From: Escherichia phage ECD7
Length of the DNA: 64,000 nucleotides
Sequence record: NC_041936.1
Strand: one strand, 5' to 3'
Part shown: in pieces, positions 18,078 through 59,755 of the stretch
Layout of the letters: every line of letters starts with the position of its first letter
Position numbering within the stretch: the stretch's first letter is position 1
Made by a program: the position numbers and the translations under genes
The notes under the pieces: model-generated
Seen by the model: only the letters and a program-made list of their open reading frames with translations
Databases searched by the model: none
What the model was told of the DNA's origin: nothing

Positions 18078-18143
18078 TTTGATACTCATTAGTAGTTCGT
18101 TTCGGTATGTGTGCATTATAGGGGATCACCGATCCCTTGTCAA
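18078..18143 (-). promoter_or_regulatory. early promoter cassette (PeSL-like) 1
   Basis: minus strand: TTGACA, 17-bp spacer containing inverted repeat GGGATCGGTGATCCCC, TATAAT, conserved leader ..CCGAAACGAAC.., then ATG. Confidence 0.6.
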
Positions 18144-18151
18144 CAACTTTT

Positions 18152-18670
18152 TTAGTTATTTTTTAATTGCTCATCTTGCAATAGGGCAATCACATGCTGG
18201 CGATGTTCTTCCGATTGAGGCACACCGAAAAAGTTTGTTTTGTAGAAATACTCTAATCGGTCTTCTCGTGTGCTCTCTTCCATCATGATCGCGGGTAGTC
18301 CGAGATTTCGGAAACGTCGCTTTTCTGCTGGCGTAAAATCACTGTAATACAGCATATAATCATCATTACCAGCAATGCTAAACTCATCCTTCATGAAAGA
18401 GAATATTGCGTTTAAACGCTGTTTACCGTCCACGATTTCGATTTCATAGCGAGAGCCATCATCAATCTTAGCCATTGCGATAGCACCAACCGGAAAATCA
18501 TTAATCAGGTTTTCGATAAACATACGTTTGTTTTCTGTGTCCCATACCAAAGGACGCTGATAATCTGGGTTCATGTTGATATAGCCATCTTCTAACCATG
18601 CTTCGTAAACAGAGATGACAAAGTTTTTAGTATTGGTATAGTAACGGCGTTTAGGCGTTAAACGGTTCAT
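18152..18670 (-). CDS. DUF262 (ParB/Srx-like nuclease/NTPase domain) protein
   Basis: motifs NPDYQRPLVW and DGKQRL are the DUF262 signature; start set to ATG (MNRLT..) with AGGAG SD, 1 nt after upstream stop. Confidence 0.6.
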   Translation of the reverse strand: MNRLTPKRRYYTNTKNFVISVYEAWLEDGYINMNPDYQRPLVWDTENKRMFIENLINDFPVGAIAMAKIDDGSRYEIEIVDGKQRLNAIFSFMKDEFSIAGNDDYMLYYSDFTPAEKRRFRNLGLPAIMMEESTREDRLEYFYKTNFFGVPQSEEHRQHVIALLQDEQLKNN

Positions 18671-18671
18671 A

Positions 18672-19001
18672 TTATAGTCTCCTGAATGGATCATCACGTA
18701 AATCAATATCTTTTAAGAACTCATCCCATGAATGGCGGATATTGTTCTTAATTCTCCAGATAAGCGCAGGGATTGAACGCTCTCCCATCTGGAAGTAAGG
18801 ATCATATGATCCGTATGCCCAATATGCTACTACAATTCCACAATCAGCGCAATAGTATTCTATTTCACTTGCTGGCGACCAAAGTCCATCAATATGATCA
18901 GTGATCTTGCTTTCGATGTTATGGCTATGACAATCAGGGCAACGGATGCAATGACCTTGTTTATCGTAATTTGACGTTAGAGAATACTTAAACAATCTCA
19001 T
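18672..19001 (-). CDS. zinc-ribbon-like hypothetical protein
   Basis: 109 aa, CIRCPDC...CADCG cysteine pairs. Confidence 0.5.
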   Translation of the reverse strand: MRLFKYSLTSNYDKQGHCIRCPDCHSHNIESKITDHIDGLWSPASEIEYYCADCGIVVAYWAYGSYDPYFQMGERSIPALIWRIKNNIRHSWDEFLKDIDLRDDPFRRL

Positions 19002-19717
19002 TATAGATCCTTATTGGCTTCAAATACTGCCTTTGCGAATCCTCGCGGCGTAAGTGACCTGATAGTCTTTGTTCTGGTTCCTTTCCCGCCTAGCTTAGAA
19101 TGCTGTTTGCTGTACCCTTTATTAATCTGCAACGGTTTCTTTTCTGGCATTATAAAGCCTTGTCCGGTCCATAAGCAAGTCTTTTTCGGGTACATATCAC
19201 GGGCGGCAATATACTCAGGAAACGTAGGATGCTTATCATCTTCCGGCAAATAACCGCCATATTCCCACGGATGGAACATGTAATCAGGCTTACGCCACAT
19301 ACTAGAGATAACGCTTACAGGATTCTCTATCATATAGGGAACTCCTAGCCATTCACCCAAATAAGCGGTTATTTTAGCTGCCCGTACATCATGAACTTGA
19401 ATCAATGGTCCTTGTTCTCGTTTCTTTCGTTCAAAGTGTGCAGCGCCACTAACAGCTAAATTGGTGCACGGTGGGAATGCAAATATAATATCCGGTTTCC
19501 CCCATTCAAGGTCCATTGCTCTTTCCAGCCAGTTCAAATCAATCCAGGTGTTTACATAGGTAATGTTTGGATGTTCAAATCTGGTATTATACTTTTTGTA
19601 TGTACCGTGGTCGGCGTCATCCGCATTAAAGCAGACTACCTTATGACCTGCTTTAGCCCATTCTAGCCCCATTATCCCCGATCCGTCAAAGTTGCAGAAT
19701 ATTAATTTTTGTTTCAT
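19001..19717 (-). CDS. compact C5-cytosine methyltransferase-like protein
   Basis: 238 aa; FCNFDGSGIMG (motif I-like FxGxG), DIIFAFPPCTNLAVSG (motif IV PC-like), MIENPVS (motif VI ENV-like); no obvious target-recognition domain. Confidence 0.55.
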   Translation of the reverse strand: MKQKLIFCNFDGSGIMGLEWAKAGHKVVCFNADDADHGTYKKYNTRFEHPNITYVNTWIDLNWLERAMDLEWGKPDIIFAFPPCTNLAVSGAAHFERKKREQGPLIQVHDVRAAKITAYLGEWLGVPYMIENPVSVISSMWRKPDYMFHPWEYGGYLPEDDKHPTFPEYIAARDMYPKKTCLWTGQGFIMPEKKPLQINKGYSKQHSKLGGKGTRTKTIRSLTPRGFAKAVFEANKDL

Positions 19718-19959
19718 ATACGACCCTTTAACCCAGCACAGATTTTAGTCGGTTCTTTACCGTGCCACATTAAGTAAAGTCCGTTAGTGCGGCCTTGTTT
19801 TGTATATGATTCTTTTCTGATCTTCTTATAGTATCGTGCTTCCTCAGCCGATTGTTTAGAATGCCGATCATAAAGGAAGAGGAACAAAGGCCAACCATTA
19901 GCGGCCTTAATGCAGTTATTAAGAAATTCCTTATTGCGTTTAATTAATTTTCTTTTCAC
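19714..19959 (-). CDS. hypothetical basic protein
   Basis: 81-aa ORF, overlapping stop/start with neighbours in the same operon. Confidence 0.5.
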   Translation of the reverse strand: MKRKLIKRNKEFLNNCIKAANGWPLFLFLYDRHSKQSAEEARYYKKIRKESYTKQGRTNGLYLMWHGKEPTKICAGLKGRI

Positions 19960-20207
19960 GCTGCCCCCATTGGTTTGATAGTAACAGAATCTAAAAGACC
20001 TTTGTTAGCCAGTTCGCGGCAAGTTTTCAGATCCGTAACTTCCCAGCCAGCCGCAATCAGGTTATCAATGAGGCTGTTAGCAACTTCCTCGCTCATGAAA
20101 GAGCACTGTTTGCCGATGGTGTAGCGCACACGCTGTAATTTCAGTTTACGGAAGCCTTTAACGTTCAGGTCTTTAGCGATTTTCTTTGCGGTTTCGATGT
20201 TAGCCAT
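19956..20207 (-). CDS. hypothetical small early protein
   Basis: 83 aa, first gene after promoter cassette at 20208-20276. Confidence 0.5.
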   Translation of the reverse strand: MANIETAKKIAKDLNVKGFRKLKLQRVRYTIGKQCSFMSEEVANSLIDNLIAAGWEVTDLKTCRELANKGLLDSVTIKPMGAA

Positions 20208-20276
20208 TGTTTGATTCTCCTAAGTGGTATCTCGTCTTGATGGTTGTATTGTAGGGGAGTTATCCTCCCCTGTCAA
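20208..20276 (-). promoter_or_regulatory. early promoter cassette (PeSL-like) 2
   Basis: TTGACA, 17-bp spacer with palindrome GGGGAGGATAACTCCCC, TACAAT, leader, GGAGAATCAAACAATG. Confidence 0.55.
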
Positions 20277-20290
20277 CACTTTTTATAAAA

Positions 20291-20458
20291 TTATTTGTTA
20301 ATTTCTGGTGCGTTGCTCGGATAGTAACCTTCTTTAACGCCCAGGTATTTCGCAACCATCCCTACAATCTTCTGTGCTACTACAATGTCAAATTTCAGAT
20401 AATCTTCGCCGTGGGTTTCAATGATATATGCTTCACATGCTGCTTTAGTCTCGAACAT
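20291..20458 (-). CDS. hypothetical 55-aa protein (copy 1 of duplicated gene)
   Basis: read by eye: MFETKAACEAYIIETHGEDYLKFDIVVAQKIVGMVAKYLGVKEGYYPSNAPEINK; near-identical paralog at 23549-23716; own promoter cassette. Confidence 0.5.
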   Translation of the reverse strand: MFETKAACEAYIIETHGEDYLKFDIVVAQKIVGMVAKYLGVKEGYYPSNAPEINK

Positions 20459-20520
20459 TTTGATTCTCCTATTTCGTTTCGGTATGGGTGTATTATAGGG
20501 GATCTCCCGATCCCCGTCAA
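20459..20520 (-). promoter_or_regulatory. early promoter cassette (PeSL-like) 3
   Basis: TTGACG, spacer GGGGATCGGGAGATCCCC, TATAAT, leader CCGAAACGAAAT, GGAGAATCAAAATG. Confidence 0.6.
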
Positions 20521-20534
20521 CAACTTTTTTAAAA

Positions 20535-20816
20535 TTATTCGTGATTAGTTTCGATGTTGTGCATTTTGCACCAGTTCAGCCAATCGCCCAGATCTTGATA
20601 GTTGATGCTTTTATCTGCTGCCATCGTTTTTGTCTTGATACCCATATGTGCGTTATGAGTAAGCATTTTTACAGTGAACTCAATTTTATCGCCTTTAGCT
20701 TTAACATCAACCAGTTTGGTCCACTGGCTACCAGCGCCGCGAATGTTCATGCCAACGATGTTTCCGATGTATGCTTCTTTGTTTTTCAGGATTTCGGTTG
20801 CTTTGATGAATTTCAT
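20535..20816 (-). CDS. hypothetical small early protein
   Basis: 93 aa, promoter cassette upstream. Confidence 0.55.
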   Translation of the reverse strand: MKFIKATEILKNKEAYIGNIVGMNIRGAGSQWTKLVDVKAKGDKIEFTVKMLTHNAHMGIKTKTMAADKSINYQDLGDWLNWCKMHNIETNHE

Positions 20817-20878
20817 TTTTGATTCTCCAGTTCGTTTCGGTATGGGTGTATTATGCTATGTTCTTACTTTGGTGTCAA
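20817..20878 (-). promoter_or_regulatory. early promoter cassette 4
   Basis: TTGACA, 17 bp, CATAAT, conserved leader and GGAGAATCAAAA ATG; spacer not palindromic here. Confidence 0.55.
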
Positions 20879-20885
20879 CAACTTT

Positions 20886-21155
20886 TTAGATATTTTCAGA
20901 AATAAATTTTAAAACTTGACGTAAATGTTTCTCATCTTTGATAGTCGCCGGAAGTTCTTCTTTTACTTCCTGTGCAAGATAGATATTTCCGTTCCAAGTG
21001 AAAGATCCGTCTTCGTTTACGCGATAGCTGAACATCCACTCGCAATCATTTTCGATTTCATATACACACAGAAGGGTGTAATCGTTAAAGCTATTGATTT
21101 CAAGGTCGAAGCCGTGACGTTTTGCAAAGTTGGTAGTGGTTTTAGTCAGTGCCAT
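20886..21155 (-). CDS. hypothetical small early protein
   Basis: 89 aa, promoter cassette upstream. Confidence 0.55.
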   Translation of the reverse strand: MALTKTTTNFAKRHGFDLEINSFNDYTLLCVYEIENDCEWMFSYRVNEDGSFTWNGNIYLAQEVKEELPATIKDEKHLRQVLKFISENI

Positions 21156-21224
21156 TGTTTGATTCTCCTAAGTGGTATCTAGTTTCGATGGGTGTATTAT
21201 GCTATACACAGGATCTGGTGTCAA
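21156..21224 (-). promoter_or_regulatory. early promoter cassette 5
   Basis: TTGACA, 17 bp, CATAAT, leader CATCGAAAC.., GGAGAATCAAACAATG. Confidence 0.55.
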
Positions 21225-21248
21225 TGCCTTTTTTAAAATTTTATGCAA

Positions 21249-21274
21249 TAAAAAAGCCGACGCTATGGTCGGCT
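21249..21274 (-). terminator. rho-independent terminator
   Basis: AGCCGACCATAGCGTCGGCT hairpin followed by TTTTTTATT on minus strand. Confidence 0.6.
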
Positions 21275-21281
21275 AATAAAA

Positions 21282-21590
21282 TCATTTAGACAAATAATCA
21301 TTCTGTGCAATCCGGTCGGCGTATGCTGGTGTTATGTCAATCGCCAGCACTTTAACGCGTGCTTTCTTGCGACCTGGGTTTTCTCGTAACCAGTGCTCAT
21401 GACCGTGAATATTTTTATACTGCGATGCTTCTTCGAAGGTACGGATCGGACCTGGGTAATCAGCGTAAAGGATCTCTAGATCTTCGGTGATGTAAAAATA
21501 TACATCGTAATTGCTGTTCTCTAGCTTAAGCAGAGACTTTCGGAACATTGGGAGATTTTCGCGGGTAAATTCAAAGATATTATCTTTCAT
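21282..21590 (-). CDS. HxHW-family small protein (paralog 1)
   Basis: 102 aa; ..YFYITEDLEILY..HGHEHW..VKVLAIDI..; terminator downstream. Confidence 0.55.
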   Translation of the reverse strand: MKDNIFEFTRENLPMFRKSLLKLENSNYDVYFYITEDLEILYADYPGPIRTFEEASQYKNIHGHEHWLRENPGRKKARVKVLAIDITPAYADRIAQNDYLSK

Positions 21591-21613
21591 AGTATTATCC
21601 TCAATAGTTGGAT

Positions 21614-21636
21614 GAAAAGGGGCGTTAACGCCCCCA
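21614..21636 (-). terminator. rho-independent terminator
   Basis: GGGGCGTTAACGCCCC hairpin then TTTTCAT on minus strand. Confidence 0.5.
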
Positions 21637-21640
21637 TATA

Positions 21641-21928
21641 TTAAAACAGTCCTTCCTGTACACCGTAGTAGAGTTCGTCGCTGATAATTTCATTAATGCG
21701 ACGGTGTGCATATTCCTGATTTGCGAAGTTGTCAGCAAGTTCTACTTTAGTTTCGCCGTCATGAGTCCATTTAGTGATAACTTTACCATCTGCAAATTTG
21801 AAGTTGAACTCTTTAGCTACTGCATCGCGTACCAGACGTGCAAACTTATTGTTGCGGATTGCATTGTCGGTTTCGTGTGCAGCGTGAGCAAATTTGTTAA
21901 CTTTCAGAGTGATAGTGATGTATGCCAT
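21641..21928 (-). CDS. hypothetical small early protein (VAKEFN family)
   Basis: 95 aa; shares VAKEFNFK block with ORF 24934-25245; promoter cassette upstream, terminator downstream. Confidence 0.55.
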   Translation of the reverse strand: MAYITITLKVNKFAHAAHETDNAIRNNKFARLVRDAVAKEFNFKFADGKVITKWTHDGETKVELADNFANQEYAHRRINEIISDELYYGVQEGLF

Positions 21929-22003
21929 AATTTGATTCTCCTAGTTAGAAAGTGTATCTCGTTTCGATGGGGATATTATGCTATACCCCCGATCTGGTGT
22001 CAA
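21929..22003 (-). promoter_or_regulatory. early promoter cassette 6
   Basis: TTGACA, 17 bp, CATAAT, leader ..CATCGAAACGAGATAC.., GGAGAATCAAATTATG. Confidence 0.55.
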
Positions 22004-22009
22004 CACTTT

Positions 22010-22288
22010 TTATAAAATAATTTTTTGATATTTTTCTATGATGTTCGTGTAAGTCACATCAACCGCTAGCACCGTTGCTTCGAATCCACCGTTTAGCCAA
22101 TGGCTATGATCATGGTCGTGAAAGAAACCTAGTCCAGTACGAAGACCTTCTTTATATTCTGCGCGTACATTCAGTTTGTCGTCGATAAACAGATAAAACC
22201 ATGAATTTTTACTAGGATTGATGATACAACCTTTCAGATTAGGGAGAATATCACGACTAAGAATAAATTTATCACCTACTTTGAACAT
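22010..22288 (-). CDS. HxHW-family small protein (paralog 2)
   Basis: start set to ATG (MFKVGDK..) with GAGGA SD; ..FYLFIDDKLNV..HDHSHW..TVLAVDV.. Confidence 0.55.
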   Translation of the reverse strand: MFKVGDKFILSRDILPNLKGCIINPSKNSWFYLFIDDKLNVRAEYKEGLRTGLGFFHDHDHSHWLNGGFEATVLAVDVTYTNIIEKYQKIIL

Positions 22289-22292
22289 AATA

Positions 22293-22613
22293 TTAGTCCT
22301 CACTTATAAGGTCAAACCAATTGTTTTTCGCATAATGCTTAATGCGTGCTTGATCTGCTTCCGCTGGTGATAGATTCCATGCAACCACTACAACTTCTGA
22401 CGCATCGTCATCAGTTTCTGATACCCAATGATTGTGATTCATACAGTTATTTGCTATCGAGTGAGCAAATGATTTCATCACTGGAGACGTATAATCATAG
22501 TAACGGATTTTCAGATTTTCATCAACATACAAATAGATCGTATAAGGTTTATATTCAGTAACCAGTAACAGACAGTTACGCAATTCTGGGAAAATCTTTT
22601 TAGTTAATTTCAT
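22293..22613 (-). CDS. HxHW-family small protein (paralog 3)
   Basis: 106 aa; ..YLYVDENLKIRY..NHNHW.. Confidence 0.5.
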   Translation of the reverse strand: MKLTKKIFPELRNCLLLVTEYKPYTIYLYVDENLKIRYYDYTSPVMKSFAHSIANNCMNHNHWVSETDDDASEVVVVAWNLSPAEADQARIKHYAKNNWFDLISED

Positions 22614-22815
22614 ATTCTAGTTCTCCGTAATACACAGTAATCCATTTTTCTTCATACTTTGTATCTTTCCAGCACACAACCCCGTTTACTGTGCAATCTT
22701 TGGAATTGACGAATGATTCATATTGTTCTGCATCTTCCATCATTTCATGAGCGGTCTTTTCATCGAATATATCGCAGATCGCTTTATATGCTCGATAATC
22801 TTTAAATTTGCTCAT
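22600..22815 (-). CDS. hypothetical small protein (MSKFKDY tandem paralog a)
   Basis: start set to ATG MSKFKDYRAYK; paralogous to next ORF. Confidence 0.5.
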   Translation of the reverse strand: MSKFKDYRAYKAICDIFDEKTAHEMMEDAEQYESFVNSKDCTVNGVVCWKDTKYEEKWITVYYGELEYEIN

Positions 22816-22817
22816 AA

Positions 22818-23027
22818 TTAACACCACTCAAGAGTTTTTGAAAACACATCTATCCATTGTTGAGTATATGCGGTTTCTTTCCATGATACAATACCAGTCG
22901 AATAATGGTTTTTGTTTCCAGAAAAGGACGGGCATTTTGATGCATCTTCCATCATCTTTTCGGCGAACTCTGGTGCGTATACTCGCAAGATCTGTTGATA
23001 TGCTTTGTAGTCTTTAAATTTGCTCAT
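22818..23027 (-). CDS. hypothetical small protein (MSKFKDY tandem paralog b)
   Basis: 69 aa MSKFKDYKAYQQ...; tandem duplicate of 22600-22815. Confidence 0.5.
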   Translation of the reverse strand: MSKFKDYKAYQQILRVYAPEFAEKMMEDASKCPSFSGNKNHYSTGIVSWKETAYTQQWIDVFSKTLEWC

Positions 23028-23292
23028 AATCGTTAACTACCTTATCAGCTTCTTTTATTGTTTTTACATCAACTGCGATAATACGTAAAGGTTCGTCGAA
23101 GGTCCACCAATGATCGTGAATATCAGCTTGTGATTTATCACCAAAGGAATCACGAATATCATTTTTACATTTATAGCTAATGTGACCGTTATAGTCAACA
23201 TAAAGGTAATTATCGAAAATCGGCGTTTTTAAGATCATACCGAAAAATCTTTCTTTGTGTGTCTTATCCAGCGTTGCAGTAATTCGCATCAT
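23014..23292 (-). CDS. HxHW-family small protein (paralog 4)
   Basis: 92 aa; ..YLYVDYNGHISY..HDHWW..RIIAVDV.. Confidence 0.55.
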   Translation of the reverse strand: MMRITATLDKTHKERFFGMILKTPIFDNYLYVDYNGHISYKCKNDIRDSFGDKSQADIHDHWWTFDEPLRIIAVDVKTIKEADKVVNDYEQI

Positions 23293-23304
23293 AATATATT
23301 CCTC

Positions 23305-23484
23305 TTAGAAAGGGATGGTCATTTCTTGAGCTTGTACATTCTCGTTAGGATTAAACTTCATCCAACCGATATTGTCTACCAGCATATACACATTTTTATC
23401 ATATCCTACGTGAGTAGTCAACACTAAATGTGCTTTACCTTCAACGATGATTTCCATGTACTTCTGAACTTCGATAGCTTTCAT
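23305..23484 (-). CDS. hypothetical 59-aa protein
   Basis: read by eye (MKAIEVQKYMEII...), ATG directly after promoter cassette; under 60 aa so absent from track. Confidence 0.45.
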   Translation of the reverse strand: MKAIEVQKYMEIIVEGKAHLVLTTHVGYDKNVYMLVDNIGWMKFNPNENVQAQEMTIPF

Positions 23485-23545
23485 TTTGATTCTCCGTTTG
23501 TTGTCTTGATGGGAGTATCTTACTACTCCCTTTAATCATTGTCAA
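23485..23545 (-). promoter_or_regulatory. early promoter cassette (PeSL-like) 7
   Basis: TTGACA, spacer then inverted repeat GGGAGTAGTAAGATACTCCC overlapping a TAAGAT -10, leader, GGAGAATCAAAATG. Confidence 0.5.
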
Positions 23546-23548
23546 CGA

Positions 23549-23716
23549 TTATTTGTTAATTTCCGGTGCGTTGCTTGGATAGTAACCTTCTTTAACACCC
23601 AGATATTTTGCAACCATTCCGGTGATCTTCTGTGCCACTACGATATCGAATTTCAGGTAGTCTTCACCGTGGGTTGCTACAATGTATGCTTCGCATTCTG
23701 CTTTAGTCTGGAACAT
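23549..23716 (-). CDS. hypothetical 55-aa protein (copy 2 of duplicated gene)
   Basis: MFQTKAECEAYIVATHGEDYLKFDIVVAQKITGMVAKYLGVKEGYYPSNAPEINK; roughly 85-90 percent nt identity by eye to 20291-20458. Confidence 0.5.
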   Translation of the reverse strand: MFQTKAECEAYIVATHGEDYLKFDIVVAQKITGMVAKYLGVKEGYYPSNAPEINK

Positions 23717-23778
23717 TTTGATTCTCCTTTATCTCGTTGGTATGTGTGCATTATAGGGGATCACCGATCCCCTGTCAA
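23717..23778 (-). promoter_or_regulatory. early promoter cassette (PeSL-like) 8
   Basis: TTGACA, GGGGATCGGTGATCCCC, TATAAT, leader, GGAGAATCAAAATG; duplicated with cassette 3 together with its gene. Confidence 0.6.
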
Positions 23779-23783
23779 CAACT

Positions 23784-24079
23784 TTATAATGCTTTATATG
23801 CGTATTTCATAAATTTGTCTGCCACTTCATTGGCATGTTCAGATTCTACGCCTGATTCGAGAACAATAGCTAGGTCGGTTTCGTCATTCCCGCCGTACCA
23901 ATGATTTGATGTTCGATTTTTTTCAATTGGAAATTGGTCACTTTTATCTGTGCGACAAAATACATCTAAATGCTCGTCGATGTAAAAGATCCAATCTTCA
24001 TAAAGAATAACGGTATTAGCCAGATTTTTATTGCCTTCAACGAAAGGTTCGGCTACAAACAAATTAGTATGTTCCATAG
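23784..24079 (-). CDS. HxHW-family small protein (paralog 5)
   Basis: start set to ATG MEHTNLFV.. (SD GAGGAAAT); ..ILYEDWIFYIDEHLDV..SNHW..LAIVLE. Confidence 0.5.
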
Positions 24080-24093
24080 TAATTTCCTCAAAA

Positions 24094-24285
24094 TTATACA
24101 GCTTCGTAAACTTCCCAATGTCCAACACCAGCACGCTTAACGAAAAGGTTTTCTTTGATGTTATTCATAAACGTCTGGATGGATTTAATGCGGTTTGAAG
24201 GTTTCCATTCTTCGTTGGCATTGCGTCGATACATCATAACATTACCAGTTCGCTTATATTCAGCAACCATTTTAAGACCACACAT
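24094..24285 (-). CDS. hypothetical small protein
   Basis: 63-aa ORF in same transcription unit. Confidence 0.45.
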   Translation of the reverse strand: MCGLKMVAEYKRTGNVMMYRRNANEEWKPSNRIKSIQTFMNNIKENLFVKRAGVGHWEVYEAV

Positions 24286-24342
24286 AATATTATCCTCAAT
24301 TTGCGGGAGAGTATTACCCCTCCCAATGATTGTTATGTTATA

Positions 24343-24663
24343 TCACACAAAATGGCGTGTCAATGCTTCTTTTGCGGTTCCGCTAAGACTTTCGATCTCG
24401 CCTGGCATAACATCAACCGCCAGAACTTCTACAACATCCTCGGACCCTAACCAGTGAGTATGGCCTTTGTAGAACTTGATAACCAGACTACCTTCCTCGT
24501 CCCATTTAACGCTATCGCTAGCCCACCACACATCACCGTCGATAAAGTTGATGTAAAGCACACTACGCAACATTGAATTAATTACTTTCAATACTGCGCC
24601 TTTCATCTCTTCCACGGTATGGTCTTCCATTTTGAAGACCATACCTACCTGAACTTTTGCCAT
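24343..24663 (-). CDS. HxHW-family small protein (paralog 6)
   Basis: 106 aa; ..LYINFIDGDVWW..KGHTHWLGSEDVVEVLAVDV.. Confidence 0.55.
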   Translation of the reverse strand: MAKVQVGMVFKMEDHTVEEMKGAVLKVINSMLRSVLYINFIDGDVWWASDSVKWDEEGSLVIKFYKGHTHWLGSEDVVEVLAVDVMPGEIESLSGTAKEALTRHFV

Positions 24664-24680
24664 TTAGTCACCTCTCTTTA

Positions 24681-24860
24681 TTACATAACAATCACGCCAG
24701 CCGTTGAAAGTTGATGTTTCAACTGAGCATTTTCTGCTACCGTCAAATCAATGATTTCTTGTGACGCTGCAATCATATATCCATTGGTGATATTGTTTTG
24801 CATCAGTTCAATGGTTTCTTCGTTGTAGCGGATTTTAGCGATGATTTCGTTGAAGTTCAT
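24681..24860 (-). CDS. hypothetical 59-aa protein
   Basis: read by eye (MNFNEIIAKIRYNEETIELMQ...), ATG directly after promoter cassette. Confidence 0.45.
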   Translation of the reverse strand: MNFNEIIAKIRYNEETIELMQNNITNGYMIAASQEIIDLTVAENAQLKHQLSTAGVIVM

Positions 24861-24924
24861 GATTGATTCTCCTAGTTCGTTTCGGTATGTGTGTAGTATA
24901 GGGGATCTCCCGATCCCCTGTCAA
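24861..24924 (-). promoter_or_regulatory. early promoter cassette (PeSL-like) 9
   Basis: TTGACA, GGGGATCGGGAGATCCCC, TATACT, leader ..CCGAAACGAAC.., GGAGAATCAATCATG. Confidence 0.6.
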
Positions 24925-24933
24925 CAACTTTTT

Positions 24934-25245
24934 TTAAAGTTTTTCCATGATAACGGTCATAATTACATCTTCTGCGCGAGCGGTCAGATTATCAGCGTCA
25001 GCATGTGGGCGGTTGGTTGTTACAGAGATAACACCGTTGCGCACTGGTTTGATATTGATATCAAGATGATCCGCGAAACGTTCGCCAGTTACAGAATGAA
25101 TTTTGGTGTTAAATTCTTTTGCCAGTGCCTTGCGAACTTCACGAATCAGGGTAGCGTTTTTCAGTTGGTTCTCCGCGCTCATGGTCTTCTGGGTGTTCAT
25201 GGTTCCGTCGAAGTCAATCATTGGCAGCGTTACGATGTATTTCAT
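24934..25245 (-). CDS. hypothetical small early protein (VAKEFN family)
   Basis: 103 aa; LAKEFNTK block shared with 21641-21928; promoter cassette upstream. Confidence 0.55.
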   Translation of the reverse strand: MKYIVTLPMIDFDGTMNTQKTMSAENQLKNATLIREVRKALAKEFNTKIHSVTGERFADHLDINIKPVRNGVISVTTNRPHADADNLTARAEDVIMTVIMEKL

Positions 25246-25319
25246 TTTTGATTCTCCGTTTAAGAAAGTGTGTTTCGTTTTGATGTGTGTAGTATAGGGG
25301 ATACGTGATCCCCTGTCAA
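25246..25319 (-). promoter_or_regulatory. early promoter cassette (PeSL-like) 10
   Basis: TTGACA, GGGGATCACGTATCCCC, TATACT, leader, GGAGAATCAAAAATG. Confidence 0.6.
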
Positions 25320-25332
25320 CAACTTTTTTGAA

Positions 25333-25809
25333 TTATTTTTCTTGATGCTCGCGCTCGTACTTTTCGAAATAAAATTCTACTGGCTGGTCATGAATTGACA
25401 GCAAGCCAAAGCGTTTAGCCGCTCGCAATCCCATATTGCGCTGAATGTACTTCTGGAAGTTCTCGCGTATACACTTACGCCAGTATTCTAAGCCCATACA
25501 GCTTTTATAAAGATTGCATTGTACACACGCCGGATTCATGTTATCAAGTATATCATGTTCCGGTTTATGCATTCCTACAACCTTATACTTCCACGACCCA
25601 TCATCATTACGGGCAATTCGTCCATTTTCATCATAGACTACCTTTGAGCGTCGCAATACTGGTTTGATATGGTCTGCGTGCCAGCGATCCCCTAGTTCCT
25701 CGCCACAATAGGCACAACGCCCACCGTATTTCATTTTCAGGATCTGGCGTTGCTCTTTCTTTGACAATTTTTTAGGTTTAGGGGCTTTCGCCCCTTCATT
25801 ATCACACAT
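25333..25809 (-). CDS. HNH endonuclease (free-standing, homing-type)
   Basis: CAYCG..DRWHADHIKP..N..CVQCN: HNH motif with paired CxxC zinc knuckles; start overlaps ligase stop. Confidence 0.7.
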   Translation of the reverse strand: MCDNEGAKAPKPKKLSKKEQRQILKMKYGGRCAYCGEELGDRWHADHIKPVLRRSKVVYDENGRIARNDDGSWKYKVVGMHKPEHDILDNMNPACVQCNLYKSCMGLEYWRKCIRENFQKYIQRNMGLRAAKRFGLLSIHDQPVEFYFEKYEREHQEK

Positions 25810-27298
25810 CGAATACCTCTTTTACTGTATTTGCAGTGGTCTTGTCGTAGCGAATACGTTTGATGATTGGGAGAAATAAAGAGAACTCCGGTTCATCTTC
25901 TTTACGTGATTTGCTGCGGATATACCCGTTGCATGTCATCTCAATGACTTTTCCAATCAGGTTATGACGGTCAGTCCATAACATTTCTCGGTCGAGTTCA
26001 TTTCGACGATCGAACGGAATTACACGTTCAGTACCATCATCACCTTTTTCGGTTGTAGTGTCGGTTAATCCCGATCCGGTGTTAGTCATCATTCGTCCGC
26101 ACGCACTACGGACAGTAAAACCGCCTACCTTATTGGGGTCTTTACTATGCGGATATACATCAACAATTTCCGCGTCGAAGTCAATCACTTCTTTAAATTT
26201 AACCTGATCTTTACTACGGCGATCTTCAAATACACCATGTAAATTTTTAAGGATAATACCTTCTAAGCCCATGTTTACATAGCGATGATATACTTCGCGA
26301 GCTTCATCGATATTGTTAACTACAGTGTTTTCGATTATCTGAACACGAGGATCGTTAAGTTCTTCAACAATCTGTTTTAGCTCTTCGAATCGATCTTTAT
26401 ATTGCTTCGTTGCTTTCTCGTTTCCGTAATACACATCACGGTCGATAACATCCCAGACAGTGTAAACAATACATTGGGCTTCTTCTTTTGGAATAGTTCC
26501 TTTCAGTGATTTGTTGAGGATACCATTTCCGGTCTGACGATCTGCAACAACGGATTCTTTCACCGCTTCCGCTACTGGCGTTAATGGCATTTCCTCTTCT
26601 TCAAATATCCATGACAGAGTACCATCATAAACGCTCTCAACGAAGTTCTGCGCTGGTGTTTGCGAAAGGGTAGGCATATATACCAATTCGCCATCTAGAA
26701 CAATTCCACGGCCTCGTAGACTCTCTAAAACCGCAAACAAATCATCAAGCCCTTGATAGGTATTACCTGAACGGGTATAGATTGCTAATGTTTCCCCGTC
26801 AATATCAGCCATACCACGAGCGCCATCGCTTTTAAGTTGTGCATACGCCGGATATTTGATATTGGCAATGGTCTTATCAGAACATGACGATGCAAGGTGG
26901 CACGGCTGCTGGGGGATCAGTTTCTTCCATACCTTGTTTGCAGTGGTAGCGGAACAACCGCATTCCAGGTCACGATTCAGGACCATCATTGCAACTTTAG
27001 CATCATCTTCTGACAAGCAAGTCAGAGTATCGGTAACTAGCTGTAATGCTGCATTACCAGTTACTTGACGTGTGGCAAGTTTATTTTTAAAGACTTGTAA
27101 TGCACCGGATAAAGACAATACAGACGAATAGCGCGATGGTTTATCGTATTTCTTTACGCCAAACGTAACCTGTTTGCAATATGCCAGATAAAAGCATTCT
27201 TTCAGTGTTTCATTGCTTGCAGATTCTTTCAGGATCTTTTCTTTCAGCGATGTTTTGTCTGTTGCTGCAAGCTGATTAATGATATTAAGAATTGACAT
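25802..27298 (-). CDS. 30: ATP-dependent DNA ligase gp30
   Basis: ..KYPAYAQLKSDGARG.. (adenylation motif I KxDG), LTGNAA.., DLECG.. match recalled T4 ligase; start moved from track GTG to ATG (MSILNI..). Confidence 0.9.
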   Translation of the reverse strand: MSILNIINQLAATDKTSLKEKILKESASNETLKECFYLAYCKQVTFGVKKYDKPSRYSSVLSLSGALQVFKNKLATRQVTGNAALQLVTDTLTCLSEDDAKVAMMVLNRDLECGCSATTANKVWKKLIPQQPCHLASSCSDKTIANIKYPAYAQLKSDGARGMADIDGETLAIYTRSGNTYQGLDDLFAVLESLRGRGIVLDGELVYMPTLSQTPAQNFVESVYDGTLSWIFEEEEMPLTPVAEAVKESVVADRQTGNGILNKSLKGTIPKEEAQCIVYTVWDVIDRDVYYGNEKATKQYKDRFEELKQIVEELNDPRVQIIENTVVNNIDEAREVYHRYVNMGLEGIILKNLHGVFEDRRSKDQVKFKEVIDFDAEIVDVYPHSKDPNKVGGFTVRSACGRMMTNTGSGLTDTTTEKGDDGTERVIPFDRRNELDREMLWTDRHNLIGKVIEMTCNGYIRSKSRKEDEPEFSLFLPIIKRIRYDKTTANTVKEVFDV

Positions 27299-27764
27299 TT
27301 TCACCTCGTTTTGTTAAACGTTCACGAATATCATTGAGGATACTACAAAATTCTGATTCGGTCAATATGGTCTTTAACGGATCAGTTCCACCTATACTAT
27401 GACGTAATTTCTTATTTCCGGTAGCGAGTAATGCTTTACAAAATTCTGGGTTATTCCGTGCCATCGTAACAAATGCCAGGTGCACCAGTCTGTAATAATG
27501 CTCACTCATTCGATGAATCGGGCGACCCTGAAAATATAGCATGTGATTCTCAATCTTTTCAGTCCTTCCGGTTCTTTTTGCCTTGCCACCGTGCATCAAA
27601 AAGATTTCTCTTTGCTTTTCTGGATTCTTGAATCTTAATCCCTGTAAAAATCCTTCTGTGCTGTTAATATCGCAACCAAATAGACGGAATGGTCTTTTAT
27701 TGAAGTTGCTCAATTCACCCGATGGATAAGGTCCACCCGCATAGATATCAATTTCAGAAGTCAT
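27285..27764 (-). CDS. NADAR (YbiA/DUF1768)-like protein
   Basis: pattern ..IYAGGPYPSGELSNF..STEGFLQGLRF..KALLATGNKKLRH resembles recalled E. coli YbiA/NADAR family; assignment by pattern only. Confidence 0.5.
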   Translation of the reverse strand: MTSEIDIYAGGPYPSGELSNFNKRPFRLFGCDINSTEGFLQGLRFKNPEKQREIFLMHGGKAKRTGRTEKIENHMLYFQGRPIHRMSEHYYRLVHLAFVTMARNNPEFCKALLATGNKKLRHSIGGTDPLKTILTESEFCSILNDIRERLTKRGENVNS

Positions 27765-27918
27765 TGAAACTAATCTCGCTAATCATAGAGAACGGATCAT
27801 AATCGTCATGAGGAATATCGATAGTAATCGAATGAGGATTTACCCATACACCAAACTGGTCTTCTTCGGTGAATACTTCGGTATGGATTTCTTGGATGTT
27901 TACATTCATAGTTTTCAT
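27754..27918 (-). CDS. hypothetical 54-aa acidic protein
   Basis: read by eye (MKTMNVNIQEIHTEVF...), stop overlaps start of NADAR-like gene; weak. Confidence 0.3.
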   Translation of the reverse strand: MKTMNVNIQEIHTEVFTEEDQFGVWVNPHSITIDIPHDDYDPFSMISEISFNDF

Positions 27919-28000
27919 AATAAAAATTCCTTAATAATCAATAACTTACAAAATCATATAGCCAAAATATAGCGGGATTATTACCCGCCGTTTAAAATCA

Positions 28001-28324
28001 TTAACCGTAAACTACCACAATATTCTGTTTGTGCGTTACAGTCCATTTCAGGTCGATCTCTTCTTCCTTCTTAACGCCGTTAATAACGTCTGGATGAGGA
28101 ACTTTATTAAGTTTCCCATGAGGAAGCAATACAGTCTTGCCCAGCAATTCTTTATCAACGTTATCACCGATATCAATAATCTTACCGACTAAAGGAATCT
28201 CTCCCATAGTTCGTTTTTGCTCGATGATAATACCAAAATCGCTCTTTACTTCGGTCCCTGCGCTTTCCGCTTTAGCTTCAATGATCACATAGTCACCAAG
28301 TGCTTTAGGAGTTTTAACGGTCAT
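28001..28324 (-). CDS. 31: co-chaperonin gp31 (GroES-like)
   Basis: 107 aa; ..LGDYVIIE..GIIIEQKR..GKIIDIG.. GroES/gp31-like pattern; position between ligase and cd. Confidence 0.7.
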   Translation of the reverse strand: MTVKTPKALGDYVIIEAKAESAGTEVKSDFGIIIEQKRTMGEIPLVGKIIDIGDNVDKELLGKTVLLPHGKLNKVPHPDVINGVKKEEEIDLKWTVTHKQNIVVVYG

Positions 28325-28360
28325 AATTTTCTTACCTCTTCAATTCATCTCAATAGTAAA

Positions 28361-28972
28361 TTATTTATATTTCGCGACCTTTGGATTTCGCCGCAGACCG
28401 GAATGTATTTGCGCTATACAACAATAAGAAACATTAAACATATCAGCTATAATTTGCTTCTTAACTTTTCCTTTAAGCCGCATTATTTCTTCGACTTGCG
28501 CATTTGTCAGTTTTGCCCGTGAGTGGTTTTCACCGACATTGTTATTGAGTCCAGTTCTAAATGAATGTCTCATATTTTCTAGTAAGGTTACTATTTCTAG
28601 ATTCCACACATAATTGCAGGTTTTTACACCATTGATGTGATTAACCTCAAGTCCGGTAACGTCTCCTAGAAATGCATTTGCTACAAGTCGATGTATCTTT
28701 TCGGCTTTAACTGAGATTTTACCATTGTCTTTTTGTTTTGACAATGTTGAATAATAATATCCATATCGGTCTAAAATTGGTTTTATTATTTTACCAGCCC
28801 GTTTTTGTTTTACGAGCTTAATATTACCGGGAGAAACTTCTCTATAAAATTCGATACTTCGGTCAATAGATCTCAATCTACCATAATTAGAGATTTCATA
28901 CCACGGATAACCTACAGCTTGTCTCCATTCTTCCGGCGCTGGTAATACGATATTATCATCTTTTGTTTCCAT
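28361..28972 (-). CDS. HNH homing endonuclease with NUMOD4-like N-terminus
   Basis: WYEISNYGRLRS (NUMOD4-like), EVNHINGVKTCN (HNH), GENHSRAKLT; start set to ATG two codons inside the track TTG start. Confidence 0.7.
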   Translation of the reverse strand: METKDDNIVLPAPEEWRQAVGYPWYEISNYGRLRSIDRSIEFYREVSPGNIKLVKQKRAGKIIKPILDRYGYYYSTLSKQKDNGKISVKAEKIHRLVANAFLGDVTGLEVNHINGVKTCNYVWNLEIVTLLENMRHSFRTGLNNNVGENHSRAKLTNAQVEEIMRLKGKVKKQIIADMFNVSYCCIAQIHSGLRRNPKVAKYK

Positions 28973-28974
28973 TG

Positions 28975-29301
28975 TCAACTGCCACCGTAAATTTCAACGA
29001 TCTGCGCTGGAGTCAGCCCGTCTACATTAATCAGACTATCAAGCCCAATACTACGGAAACCTTCAACTGCAATTTCATATACTGGCAAAGATGTTTCTGA
29101 TTCTTTACGCGGTTTTTCAACATTAGGAACTAACCACTTTTCGTATGTTTCGAAAGGCATCAGTGCCGGATCTCGCGTAGCGATCATATCTCGGACAGTA
29201 CCATCTTTCTTAGTAAACTGCAAAGAGTGAGTACCGACAGAAAACATTTTCTTTAGTGCTTCACGAAGTGCGATATTATCAATTTGTTCAGTCATTATCA
29301 A
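28975..29301 (-). CDS. hypothetical protein
   Basis: 108-aa ORF between HNH gene and cd. Confidence 0.5.
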   Translation of the reverse strand: MIMTEQIDNIALREALKKMFSVGTHSLQFTKKDGTVRDMIATRDPALMPFETYEKWLVPNVEKPRKESETSLPVYEIAVEGFRSIGLDSLINVDGLTPAQIVEIYGGS

Positions 29302-29794
29302 TACCCTTCAAATCAGTCAATAATGCTTTTGGAATACGCGTAACCGTAATGTCGGCTTTATCCAAAATATCAGCCCAATCACACCCACCATTTCGATCAT
29401 ATGTGTCGCAATAGTATAGATGTTTAATTCCACTGTTTGCAATTGCTTTAGCGCAATCTGGACACGGTGAAGCAGTACACCACATACTAGCGCCTTCAAT
29501 CGATACACCGCTACGGGCAGCAAACAAAATAGCATTTAATTCAGCATGGATCTCGTTTTTCTGTGACCATGCACTATGTTCTGGTCGTTTTTCTGGGATC
29601 ATTTTGCCGTCATCATCCAGCCAACCGCTTTTATGTGCATGACAGCTACAATTTACTTGCCCTGCTGGAGTGCCGTTAAATCCAGTAGAAATGATTCGCC
29701 CGTCTTTTTCGATCAGTGCGCCTACCTTCCACGAAACGCATTTAGAGTTCTTTGCGATTAGATAGGCGATCTGCATGTAAGTTTGTGACAACAT
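29288..29794 (-). CDS. cd: dCMP deaminase
   Basis: zinc-binding deaminase motifs HAELNAI and PCPDCAKAI; GALIEKDGRIISTGFNGTPAG matches recalled T4 Cd. Confidence 0.85.
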   Translation of the reverse strand: MLSQTYMQIAYLIAKNSKCVSWKVGALIEKDGRIISTGFNGTPAGQVNCSCHAHKSGWLDDDGKMIPEKRPEHSAWSQKNEIHAELNAILFAARSGVSIEGASMWCTASPCPDCAKAIANSGIKHLYYCDTYDRNGGCDWADILDKADITVTRIPKALLTDLKGIDND

Positions 29795-29815
29795 AATATA
29801 ATCCTCACATATTAA

Positions 29816-30019
29816 TTAACCGTATACGCGAAAGTATTCTACCGATCCGTCACTATACTGTTTTACATTGAATGTATTCACACCATGATCATTGCTCATA
29901 ATGACATATACACTGCGACGCTCATCACCAAACGGGTTAACTGGTGCGGGTTCAATTTCAACATTAAAACCACGTTTAGCAAGTGCTTCGCCTAATTGCT
30001 TGAGTTTATCGGTAAACAT
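29816..30019 (-). CDS. hypothetical small protein
   Basis: 67-aa ORF, ATGA-type junction with pseT. Confidence 0.5.
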   Translation of the reverse strand: MFTDKLKQLGEALAKRGFNVEIEPAPVNPFGDERRSVYVIMSNDHGVNTFNVKQYSDGSVEYFRVYG

Positions 30020-31669: not shown

Positions 31670-31713
31670 ATTACCCCCAACGACAAAAGGCGGGGAACTA
31701 GCCCCGCTTATTA

Positions 31714-33280: not shown

Positions 33281-33300
33281 TATCCTTTCCTCACGTCACA

Positions 33301-33324: not shown

Positions 33325-33330
33325 ACCTTA

Positions 33331-34080: not shown

Positions 34081-34088
34081 CTACTTTT

Positions 34089-34360: not shown

Positions 34361-34370
34361 CGCCCAATAA

Positions 34371-57915: not shown

Positions 57916-58107
57916 TCACTTATCGTTAAGAAGTTCTAAAACTTTCTGTCGTACTTTGTCAATATTAGTTGATTCAAAAACTGTACGGTATCCCCAGCTT
58001 TGACCGTATGAGCGGTTGCAATCTCCATATCCCCATTGTTCAACCTGGTAGTATTCAAGGAATGGATGCTGCCGAACTATGATACCATCGCGATTAAAAA
58101 TTACCAT
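57916..58107 (-). CDS. hypothetical small protein
   Basis: 63-aa ORF. Confidence 0.45.
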   Translation of the reverse strand: MVIFNRDGIIVRQHPFLEYYQVEQWGYGDCNRSYGQSWGYRTVFESTNIDKVRQKVLELLNDK

Positions 58108-58130
58108 AATATAATCCTCACGTCAACAAC

Positions 58131-58418: not shown

Positions 58419-58429
58419 AATTTAACCTC

Positions 58430-59188
58430 TTACTTGCAAACGTATTGATCTACATCAATTGCGCCACCGAATGTGGGATGACGTTTTTCAAATCGAATAG
58501 TTCCGTCGTTTGGTTCGAAAACGGAGTATTCATATAGATCTTTCTTGCCAACATTCTTATAAAACCCACCTTTAGTCATAACGGTTTCTTGTACGTTTGC
58601 TTTGTGTACGTTGTATTCGTCAATGTATACAAAATCAACCATCTTCCCATTTTTAATGGTTACTTTAAGATCTCCTGGCTGGTTTCCATATTTTGCATAC
58701 AGTGGAGCCTCTTTAATTTTTGTGGAAATTCCATCTTTCATACTCCACTCATAACGAACGGTGCATTGATAGGTAAAAGTTTCGACCTTCGGTTCTTCTA
58801 CCACTTTTGCTTCCTGTTTCGGTTGTTCTTCTTCAACCTTCGCAGAAGTCTCTGAATCTCTCTCTGACTCGGTTTCTTCTTTAGGTAATACATTCATCAA
58901 GTTTTGGATTTGAGCGTTATATACAACCTCCAGTGGCTGAATCTGCCCGATATTGATCATTGTATCACGAACAGTTTTATTCCAGTTGCGTTGCTCTTGT
59001 TTAAGAGACGGATCAATCTTAACAGCCTTAACATATACCTCATGAAGTTTCGAATCCAGTGCGGAGATTGACTCATTAGCACAAATAAACTTCTCTGATT
59101 TGGTAGTGGCTTTAGCGCAATCAAAGGACGCAGCATTAGCACCGAAAGCAGTAGCGGAAAGAACGATAGCAGCGATAATGTTTTTCAT
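58430..59188 (-). CDS. secreted protein with DUF1311 (LprI-like) N-terminal domain, tentative
   Basis: cleavable signal peptide MKNIIAAIVLSATAFGANAAS; ..FDCAKA..FICANE..LD..L..Y......QRNW..RD.. pattern; promoter cassette upstream. Confidence 0.55.
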   Translation of the reverse strand: MKNIIAAIVLSATAFGANAASFDCAKATTKSEKFICANESISALDSKLHEVYVKAVKIDPSLKQEQRNWNKTVRDTMINIGQIQPLEVVYNAQIQNLMNVLPKEETESERDSETSAKVEEEQPKQEAKVVEEPKVETFTYQCTVRYEWSMKDGISTKIKEAPLYAKYGNQPGDLKVTIKNGKMVDFVYIDEYNVHKANVQETVMTKGGFYKNVGKKDLYEYSVFEPNDGTIRFEKRHPTFGGAIDVDQYVCK

Positions 59189-59251
59189 AATATATTCCTC
59201 AATGTTTTGTCTTGATGGGAGTATCTTACTACTCCCTTAATCCGGTGTCAA
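59189..59251 (-). promoter_or_regulatory. early promoter cassette (PeSL-like) 17
   Basis: TTGACA, CCGGATTAAGGGAGTAG, TAAGAT with GGGAGTAGTAAGATACTCCC inverted repeat, leader CATCAAGACAAAAC. Confidence 0.5.
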
Positions 59252-59258
59252 CTACTTT

Positions 59259-59414
59259 TTAAATTTCTTCTACAGTAAAGTCTTCAATGTTGTTGTGCTC
59301 GGAGAACGTTGCCAGACCAGCATTCCATGCATCATCCTCAGAGAAGAATACACCGTAACGTTCATATCCTTTAGCGCCTTCAAATTTAACCATTAATTTG
59401 TGAGTATGTTTCAT
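59259..59414 (-). CDS. hypothetical small early protein
   Basis: start set to ATG MKHTHKL.. downstream of promoter cassette. Confidence 0.45.
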   Translation of the reverse strand: MKHTHKLMVKFEGAKGYERYGVFFSEDDAWNAGLATFSEHNNIEDFTVEEI

Positions 59415-59473
59415 TTTGATTCTCCTTCGTTGTCTTGATGGGTTTAGTATAGGGGATCGCCGATCCCCTGTCA
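59415..59473 (-). promoter_or_regulatory. early promoter cassette (PeSL-like) 18
   Basis: TTGACA, GGGGATCGGCGATCCCC, TATACT, leader, GGAGAATCAAAATG. Confidence 0.6.
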
Positions 59474-59484
59474 ACAACTATTTT

Positions 59485-59697
59485 TTAATTTTTACCCGCT
59501 CGTGCATTAATACGCATTTTCTGCATAGCCATGATCTGGCTTACTGCTTCTTCTTTACGTTCTTGCGTGATAACGTGACCAGATTCAGCAAACTCTCCCG
59601 CAACTTCTTCTACGATCTCGCGAACTTGAGAACGTCCAAAGATGCGGTTTCCTTCGTAGCTCATAAATTCAGTCACTACTTGCTCAATAGATTTCAT
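59485..59697 (-). CDS. hypothetical small early protein
   Basis: 70 aa, promoter cassette upstream. Confidence 0.5.
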   Translation of the reverse strand: MKSIEQVVTEFMSYEGNRIFGRSQVREIVEEVAGEFAESGHVITQERKEEAVSQIMAMQKMRINARAGKN

Positions 59698-59755
59698 GTG
59701 ATTCTCCTTTTGTTTGGTATTTGTGTATTATGCAATGATGGATTATGGAAGTCAA
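59698..59755 (-). promoter_or_regulatory. early promoter cassette 19
   Basis: TTGACT, 17 bp, CATAAT, leader, GGAGAATCACATG. Confidence 0.45.

Follow-up and report, generated by a model that had tools for sequence, protein, structure and literature searches.

Nineteen promoter early stem-loop-like cassettes ahead of small genes in Escherichia phage ECD7

The cassette family and its genes

The stretch of Escherichia phage ECD7 analysed here (64,000 nucleotides of NC_041936.1, hereafter the window) carries on its minus strand 19 copies of a cassette that joins a promoter to a ribosome site ahead of small genes. Very probably these repeats are the promoter early stem-loop (PeSL) cassettes of an RB49-like Krischvirus, each a portable expression signal of about 90 bp. 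The window is 95-98% identical to the Krischvirus genomes JEP8, kvi, PHB13, RB49, Phi1 and JSE, and it runs colinear with RB49 between alt and rIIB, by way of gene 30, nrdAB, gene 32 and the tail-fibre genes. The regions that contain cassettes correspond to the RB49 open reading frames (ORFs) 185-211, 225-228, 233, 239-240 and 262-266, the first of these being the hyperplastic region studied in RB49 (PMC2839356). Eighteen of the 19 first ORFs behind the cassettes match no Pfam family; the exception, at 59188, encodes a protein with an LprI domain.

An earlier note on this DNA had listed 19 minus-strand units. All 19 are present, each directly 5' of an ATG, and we name them here by the position of that ATG; 18 positions were given correctly and one had to be moved from 18077 to 18078. 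Each unit was said to have a -35 hexamer TTGACA, a 17-bp spacer and a TATAAT-like -10. The -35 is TTGACA in 16 copies, TTGACG in two and TTGACT in one, and the spacer measures 17 bp in 16 copies, 16 bp in two and 18 bp in one. Every copy has a -10 that matches TATAAT at four or more of the six bases (TATAAT in 6 copies, CATAAT in 5, TATACT in 3, TAAGAT in 3, TACAAT in 1 and TAATAT in 1). A tract of at least four A lies upstream of the -35 in 16 copies, and the 20 nt upstream of the promoters are 60-95% A+T, against 59.6% for the window as a whole. The proposed unit length of 60-75 bp is right for the distance from -35 to ATG and becomes about 85-100 bp when the A-rich upstream element is counted.

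The conserved leader described in the earlier note was recovered as a C-rich discriminator, a conserved CAT and a leader opening AT(ACC/C)(G/A)AAAC, discriminator and leader start together reading (A/C)C(A/C)CCAT(ACC/C)(G/A)AAAC. The leaders are 24-46 nt long and about 50% A. At the 3' end of every copy stand a Shine-Dalgarno (SD) sequence, 7-9 nt 5' of the ATG, and the start codon itself. The translation initiation region had been called near-invariant, which describes about two thirds of the copies (GGAGAATCA in 12/19) and not the remainder; a second type of ribosome site, GAGGAWTWTATTATG, is found in 3-4 copies. GGAG occurs within the SD region of 15 copies.

These 19 copies were the top matches of a promoter scan of the window. 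A profile built from them recovered exactly those 19 at 34.8-61 bits, the next match scoring 8.6 bits, and when each copy was left out of the profile in turn it was still recovered at 18.6-61 bits, while non-cassette sequence of the window reached at most 10.8 bits. The ribosome-site 14-mer GGAGAATCAAAATG, with up to two mismatches allowed, gave 10 matches against 1.06 expected, a count reached in none of 100 shuffles. The copies are thus a sharply bounded family rather than a chance set of promoter-like sites. A scan of the whole window against Rfam returned no family at gathering score, so the leader is not a known RNA element.

Counted from the ATG, similarity between copies extends from about -100 to +16 and does not continue into the genes, except in the pair 20458/23716. 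Within the otherwise unrelated coding sequences it covers 11-16 nt (MANIE.., MK(F/Y)I..), and the first four or five codons (MK.I, MANIE) belong to the shared stretch: copies 18078 and 20207 have ATGGCTAACATCGAA in common, and copies 20816 and 25245 ATGAAAT(T/A)CATC. These codons may form part of the selected ribosome site, or crossovers may sometimes take place inside the N-terminus.

Stem-loops and the match to published PeSLs

PeSLs were defined in RB49 and phi1 (Arbiol, Comeau, Kutateladze, Adamia & Krisch 2010, Genome Biol Evol 2:140, PMC2839356) as a sigma70-type early promoter with an AT-rich upstream region, a stem-loop, an SD and a start codon. The stem-loop is stable, often made of polyG/polyC, and occupies one of five positions relative to the promoter; each genome has 51-52 of these elements of about 100 bp, most of them located 5' of ORFans in hyperplastic regions (PMC2839356). 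A resemblance to these elements had been suggested in the earlier note, and it is upheld. The promoter, AT-rich upstream region, stem-loop, SD with start codon and ORFan cargo of the published description are all found here, and for two copies the RB49 counterpart, identical or almost so in sequence, is a PeSL with published reporter data. Copy 25245 (25243-25349), ahead of an ORF210-like gene, is identical to RB49 PeSL211/210 from -97 to the ATG (98 nt); when the stem-loop of PeSL211/210 was inserted by itself between promoter and lacZ, expression fell as much as with rrnB T1 (PMC2839356). Copy 23716 (23714-23807), with a spacer hairpin and an ORF205-like gene, shares 99 of 104 aligned positions with RB49 PeSL206/205, the promoter of which gave about 13,000 Miller units (PMC2839356). 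Early promoter activity has thus been shown for RB49 elements near-identical to window copies (PMC2839356). According to Nolan et al. (PMC1524935), the RB49 early-promoter consensus agrees with the mapping of early-transcript 5' ends and is C-rich from -3 to -1. Some GenBank records already carry a promoter annotation at these sites, and 19 copies over 39% of a genome are consistent with the published PeSL density. The cassettes are therefore already known: what was found is a published element in a close relative of its type phages.

The stem-loop was absent from the earlier note yet is present in 17 of the 19 copies: in 8 it lies in the spacer, in 5 across the -10, in 4 it is an upstream terminator, and 2 copies have none. 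In the spacer type a G+C-rich hairpin fills the interval between -35 and -10, for example GGGGATC-GGT-GATCCCC. It is found in copies 18078 (18076-18170; GGGATCGGTGATCCC), ahead of an ORF185-like gene and with the SD mutated to TGAG; 20207 (20205-20303; GGGGAG-GATAA-CTCCCC); 20458 (20456-20546; GGGGATC-GGGA-GATCCCC), ahead of an ORF191-like gene of 55 codons; 24860 (24858-24952), with an 18-bp spacer and an ORF209-like gene; 36564 (36562-36651; GCGGGGA-GAAA-TCCCCGC), which has the second type of ribosome site (GAGGATTTTATTATG); and 59414 (59412-59501; GGGGATC-GGC-GATCCCC).

In the second type the -10 forms the loop of the hairpin, as in copy 23484 (23482-23573; GGGAGTA-GTAAGA-TACTCCC). The hairpin likewise spans the -10 in copies 21928 (21926-22041; GGGGGTAT..ATATCCCC), which has a long leader, 33729 (33727-33827; GGGGGTA..TACCCCC), 34018 (34016-34108), with one G-T pair, and 59188 (59186-59279), which heads the gene of the 252-residue LprI-domain protein. 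Four copies have a canonical intrinsic terminator just 5' of the A-rich tract. Copy 21155 (21153-21274) has it at 21255-21274, together with a weak 6-bp hairpin across the -10; copy 34307 (34305-34398), with a short leader and no hairpin in its core, has it at 34375-34398; in copy 41821 (41819-41931) it reads CAGCCTCCC-TTCG-GGGAGGCTTTTTT; the fourth belongs to copy 59697 (59695-59796). A simple terminator scan restricted to 17500-37000 flagged the upstream terminators at 21274 and 34398 and no promoter-embedded hairpin, and the upstream terminators of 41821 and 59697, outside that range, were read from the sequence. Two members of the family stand apart: 20816 (20814-20906) folds no hairpin (minimum free energy 0), and 41436 (41434-41522) has no convincing one.

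Compared with the PeSLs of RB49 and phi1, those of the window belong to the same genus, the same regions (ORF185-211, ORF225-228, the ORF239-241 slot and ORF262-266), the same architecture and the same positional classes of stem-loop, with alike indels of the ORF192, ORF211 and ORF186 type; we found no essential difference. The phage itself departs from RB49 and phi1 in being without ORF186, ORF192, ORF195/196, ORF211 and ORF226, in a 109-codon ORF in the ORF240 slot and in its own chimeric cassette at 18078. The PeSLs of other T4-like phages (T4/PST, KVP40/nt-1; Comeau, Arbiol & Krisch 2014, PMC4122927) are, as here, composite promoter-terminator motifs that border variable genes of hyperplastic regions, but their sequence families are lineage-specific. 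T4 early promoters, like those of the window, are strong and sigma70-type, with an A-rich UP region and a CAT start; their -35 is GTTTAC whereas that of the cassettes is TTGACA. By BLAST the cassette sequence was found in 64 phage records, nearly all of them from Krischvirus and the others weak matches to phages of Cronobacter and Pectobacterium, and the exact spacer-hairpin cassette was found in one 150-kb contig only of IMG/VR.

Two broader elements absent from the earlier list lie on the minus strand at 15666-15729 (TTGACT-17-TATACT, with a hairpin GGGGACTAG..CTAGCCCC across the -10 and a different leader) and 24283-24363 (TTGACA-17-TAACAT, with a hairpin GGGAG..CTCCC 3' of the -10). A third extra near-consensus early promoter was noticed at 1619-1671, also on the minus strand. 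Their leaders are unrelated to those of the 19, so the tight-family profile missed them; under the wider definition of the 2010 paper all three would be PeSLs. An apparent cassette relic lies at 58105-58130 (minus strand), where GTTGTTGAC is fused to a ribosome site GTGAGGATTATATTATG with neither -10 nor leader. There AAGTTGTTGAC abuts the ribosome site of the 63-codon ORF 57916-58107, and the intergenic gap is only 23 nt.

Recombination between cassettes

The earlier note had proposed that the cassettes serve as substrates for gene shuffling. We compared the window with RB49, Phi1, JEP8, PHB13, JSE, Brandy, PTE-Eco09 and E26 by chaining BLAST high-scoring segment pairs (HSPs) with overlaps allowed, and scored as events all indels and replacements of at least 70 bp, those shared by descent being collapsed by eye. 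The comparison is in line with the proposal: 17 events were obtained, of which 12 touch at least one cassette and 9 have a cassette at both ends. In these nine the flanking HSPs overlap by 33-106 bp, the signature of recombination between direct repeats. Under a crude null model in which event ends fall on random gene junctions, 19 of about 78 of which have a cassette, the number of both-ends events has a binomial probability of 1.4e-7, and the 15 of 25 breakpoints found at cassettes give p=1.6e-4.

Several events can be followed gene by gene. ORF186 is present or absent at 18096-18151. ORF191 and its own cassette are missing in Brandy, and RB49 and JSE have an extra gene inserted at the 5' edge of copy 20458. 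Copy 21155 is the edge of a 406-bp indel that holds ORF195/196 in RB49 and Brandy (21177-21273 in the window). A 1.1-kb deletion in PTE-Eco09 removes four ORFs between cassettes 24860 and 23716. ORF210 is missing in Brandy, and ORF211, at the 5' edge of copy 25245, is present or absent among relatives. ORF226 is missing from the window at 33718-33812, at copy 33729, by a cassette-by-cassette deletion with an HSP overlap of 95 bp. Between two cassettes at 59699-59731, next to copy 59697, RB49 has 469 bp more (ORF265/266). The cassette-bounded slot 41503-41823, of which copy 41436 is the right-hand edge, exists in three states: it holds a 109-codon ORFan, headed by copy 41821, here and an endonuclease gene (ORF240, 1.36-1.6 kb) in RB49, Phi1 and JEP8, and it is empty in PHB13 and JSE.

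Two junctions are themselves chimeric. In cassette 18078 the part made up of upstream flank, -35, hairpin and -10 corresponds to the ORF186 cassette in JEP8/Phi1; distal leader, SD and gene correspond to the ORF185 cassette in the same phages, with a crossover within the shared CA(T/C)ACCGAAACGA at the ORF186 deletion. The junction cassette at the 1.1-kb deletion of PTE-Eco09 is chimeric likewise. Sub-modules also move between slots: an identical 17-nt hairpin spacer, GGGGATCGGTGATCCCC, stands 5' of four unrelated genes in different phages, and in nine phages whose sequences are otherwise 95-97% identical the ORF209 slot (24860) contains four distinct hairpin spacers. The 2010 paper reports experiments that found mini-circles bearing one hybrid PeSL (PMC2839356). 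Comparative genomics shows recombination from cassette to cassette, by which the flanked ORFans are lost, gained or replaced and sub-modules pass between cassettes.

The strongest competing explanation, which we nevertheless judge unlikely, is that selection for expression has kept a family of strong early promoters with ribosome sites alike, recombination being incidental and not driving the shuffling. The UP tract, -35, -10, CAT start, unstructured A-rich leader, strong SD and AAA second codon are all plausibly related to expression, and the same discriminator and initial transcribed sequence recur in unrelated phages (see below), which suggests a functional optimum. Yet hairpin loops and spacer bases are identical between non-orthologous copies and differ between orthologues of phages 95-97% identical. 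This sharing of modules across slots, together with the spacer swaps within the ORF209 slot, argues against likeness by selection alone, and the chimeric cassettes found exactly at deletion junctions, the 9 of 17 indels with a cassette at both ends and the reported mini-circles speak against it as well.

One of the events away from cassettes is a 640-bp insertion at 28348-28987, between genes 31 and 31.1, which encodes a NUMOD4+HNH_3 homing endonuclease (ORF 28361-28978, minus strand). It has no bounding cassettes, is shared with PHB13 and is absent in RB49, Phi1, JEP8 and JSE.

Predicted function and likeness to other phage promoters

The properties of the cassettes suggest how they might work. 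Right after infection, unmodified host RNA polymerase would read the A-rich UP-like tract and the near-consensus sigma70 promoter, and the transcript would start at the conserved CAT and continue into an A-rich, unstructured 5' leader. The G+C-rich hairpin would be transcribed only by read-through from upstream and would then attenuate, terminate or cap that transcript; such control of read-through was shown for PeSL211/210, to which copy 25245 is identical, and is presumed for the other copies. Since the hairpin would limit read-through, each small block would be expressed mainly from its own promoter. The unstructured leader and the strong SD GGAGAAUCAAA would give uniformly high early translation, until RegB with S1 later probably cuts and inactivates the SD sites. 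The copies, about 50 per genome, near-identical, about 90 bp long, in one orientation and placed before unrelated small genes, would be substrates for the very active homologous recombination of the phage, which would thereby reshuffle the flanked ORFans. Deletions, insertions (by way of the reported mini-circles) and swaps would result, always bringing a working promoter and ribosome site.

Folding predictions are consistent with this scheme. The promoter cores are more stably folded than dinucleotide shuffles (mean z -2.2, p=5e-6), and the predicted 5' untranslated regions with the first 33 coding bases are less structured than shuffles in all 19 copies (mean z +1.09, p=3e-8). Among 115 unique cassette variants of this phage and its relatives, stem sequences differ through compensatory changes that preserve the pairing (GGGGATC/GATCCCC, GGGGAG/CTCCCC, GGGAGTA/TACTCCC, GGGTGTAT/ATACACCC), and only 18 of 797 pairs are G-T.

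As regards RegB, the RegB/S1 site is an 11-nt single-stranded RNA, GGAGRAYARAA, usually located in the SD of early mRNA, with GGAGAAUAAAA as the T4 sequence (Durand et al. 2006, PMC1702504). The T4 sites have GGAG in the SD followed by an A-rich tract in single-stranded RNA, as do the leaders of the window, which are predicted to be unstructured. The SD sequence GGAGAAUCAAA, present in 10 copies, matches this consensus at 10 of 11 positions, and five further copies with GGAG match it at 8-9 of 11. RB49 encodes a divergent RegB, which cuts the GGAU SD of its own gene. That a RegB-like enzyme would target the cassette leaders, as the earlier note had suggested, is plausible and agrees with the literature.

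Several points weigh against this account of the 19 repeats. The activity of every window copy is predicted from sequence. Two copies (20816 and 41436) are without a hairpin, and the 13 promoter-embedded hairpins are without a canonical U-tract 3', which only the 4 upstream terminators have. Over the 115 unique cassettes the minimum free energies of the sense and antisense strands do not differ (p=0.62); with no strand bias in folding energy, sequence alone cannot decide between a role of the hairpin in RNA and one in DNA. The one mismatch of GGAGAAUCAAA to the RegB consensus is a C at position 8, where A is strongly preferred, and no regB was found among the genes of the window or in the annotated regions of relatives that match it. 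As to recombination, 5 of the 17 structural differences lie away from cassettes, two of them homing-endonuclease insertions, and both the collapsing of events by eye and the crudeness of the null model count on the same side.

The absence of strand asymmetry is what a palindrome acting in DNA predicts, and it has been considered whether the palindromes are not RNA hairpins but operators for a phage or host protein that shuts off the early promoters, or targets of a cruciform nuclease. A position between -35 and -10 is the classic one for an operator, and the recurrent GGGGATC..GATCCCC contains Dam GATC sites. Both the sequence and the position of the palindromes vary, however (in the spacer, across the -10, downstream or upstream), and only the pairing is kept, which fits a structure rather than a sequence-specific binding site; moreover, the PeSL211/210 stem-loop acted like rrnB T1 when placed alone between promoter and lacZ. 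We hold this explanation to be improbable, a little more so than selection for expression.

It is most improbable that the repeats are by-products of tandem duplication of small genes with their upstream regions, because only one segmental duplication fits (20291-20546 and 23549-23807, each with a cassette and a 55-codon ORF, ORF191-like and ORF205-like, with 85% DNA and 91% protein identity), the remaining pairs among the 19 first ORFs show no similarity at E<1e-3 and the DNA likeness of the other pairs is confined to about -100 to +16; gene duplication was accordingly rejected as the source of the repeats.

Leaving aside these alternatives, the PeSL-like cassettes resemble promoters of other phage families in their downstream half, that is, the -10, a hairpin across or ahead of it, the C-rich discriminator, AUCGAAACGAA(A)C or AUACCAAC, an A-rich leader and the SD. 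When IMG/VR was scanned with the leader 16-mer CCCATCGAAACGAAAC, the matches listed came from lambdoid and T1-like contigs and not from Krischvirus. In other phage groups CCCCATCGAAACGAAAC, the discriminator with the initial transcribed sequence, stands in the same register after a -10 hexamer. The annotated pL of phi80 (L136:375-420) is followed by TACTCCATCGAAACGAAAC, which is the discriminator and initial transcribed sequence of window copy 34018, and in at least 12 lambdoid immunity or operator-promoter types (L008-L014 and other contigs) the conserved block starts exactly at CCCATCGAAACGAAACATCGACAGC.

T1-like phages have a 21-nt intergenic repeat, aaATAGCACnnnTTGnTAAAA, in several copies oriented with transcription, about 76 nt before start codons; its function was stated to be unknown (TLS paper, PMC11447400). 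In T1-like contigs (L042, L061, L065, L080, L109 and L122; for example L109:5095-5190) we found a multi-copy cassette headed by ATAGCACnnnTTGnTAAAA. A -10-like hexamer follows after exactly 17 nt in 67 of 68 unique instances and is spanned by a hairpin in 61 of the 68; the 3' end consists of a leader of the CCCCATCGAAACGAA (AUCGAAACGAA) type, an SD and, at 72-85 nt, an ATG. In its downstream half this Drexlerviridae cassette is as in the window; its upstream half differs and has no canonical -35. Among the matches listed, the T1-like cassettes score 19-21.5 bits with the Krischvirus profile.

In Cronobacter phage PBES 02 (Certrevirus, rV5-like; L135:465-4700), consecutive small ORFs are headed by PeSL-like units. 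These units, outside the T4-like phages, comprise TTGAC, a G+C spacer hairpin, TATAAT, an A/C-rich leader and an SD, and they score 24-31 bits with the Krischvirus profile (two of them at 30.6 and 24.0). A further hint of cassette sharing between families is that the first 58 nt of the T1-like cassette, including its ATAGCAC..TTGCTAAAAC repeat, are matched at about 82% in Klebsiella phages PMBT1 and relatives (H180-H182), which measure about 176 kb and clearly are not T1-like.

We tentatively propose, as a possibility that on balance we doubt, that the downstream half of the cassette is a module common to unrelated enterobacterial phage families (Drexlerviridae and Certrevirus, with the discriminator and start only in lambdoid pL). 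The likeness could reflect exchange of promoter modules or convergence on an optimal start for a strong promoter. If the module is indeed common, promoter cassettes would be exchanged between families or the transcript start would have a host-directed function, and the 21-nt repeat of T1-like phages would be the upstream part of a PeSL-like promoter cassette. This cross-family module is the only part of the present results that is possibly new, and it could give the 21-nt repeat a testable function.

For the phage itself the value of the cassettes lies mainly in annotation: they mark 19 early starts of transcription and translation, or about 22 when the broad-sense PeSLs are included. The analysis of 2010 covered two genomes and is extended here by eight more; the published model gains support from indels bounded by cassettes, from junctions that are explicitly chimeric and from the movement of hairpin modules from slot to slot, and the cassettes explain the mosaic small-gene regions among RB49-like therapeutic coliphages.

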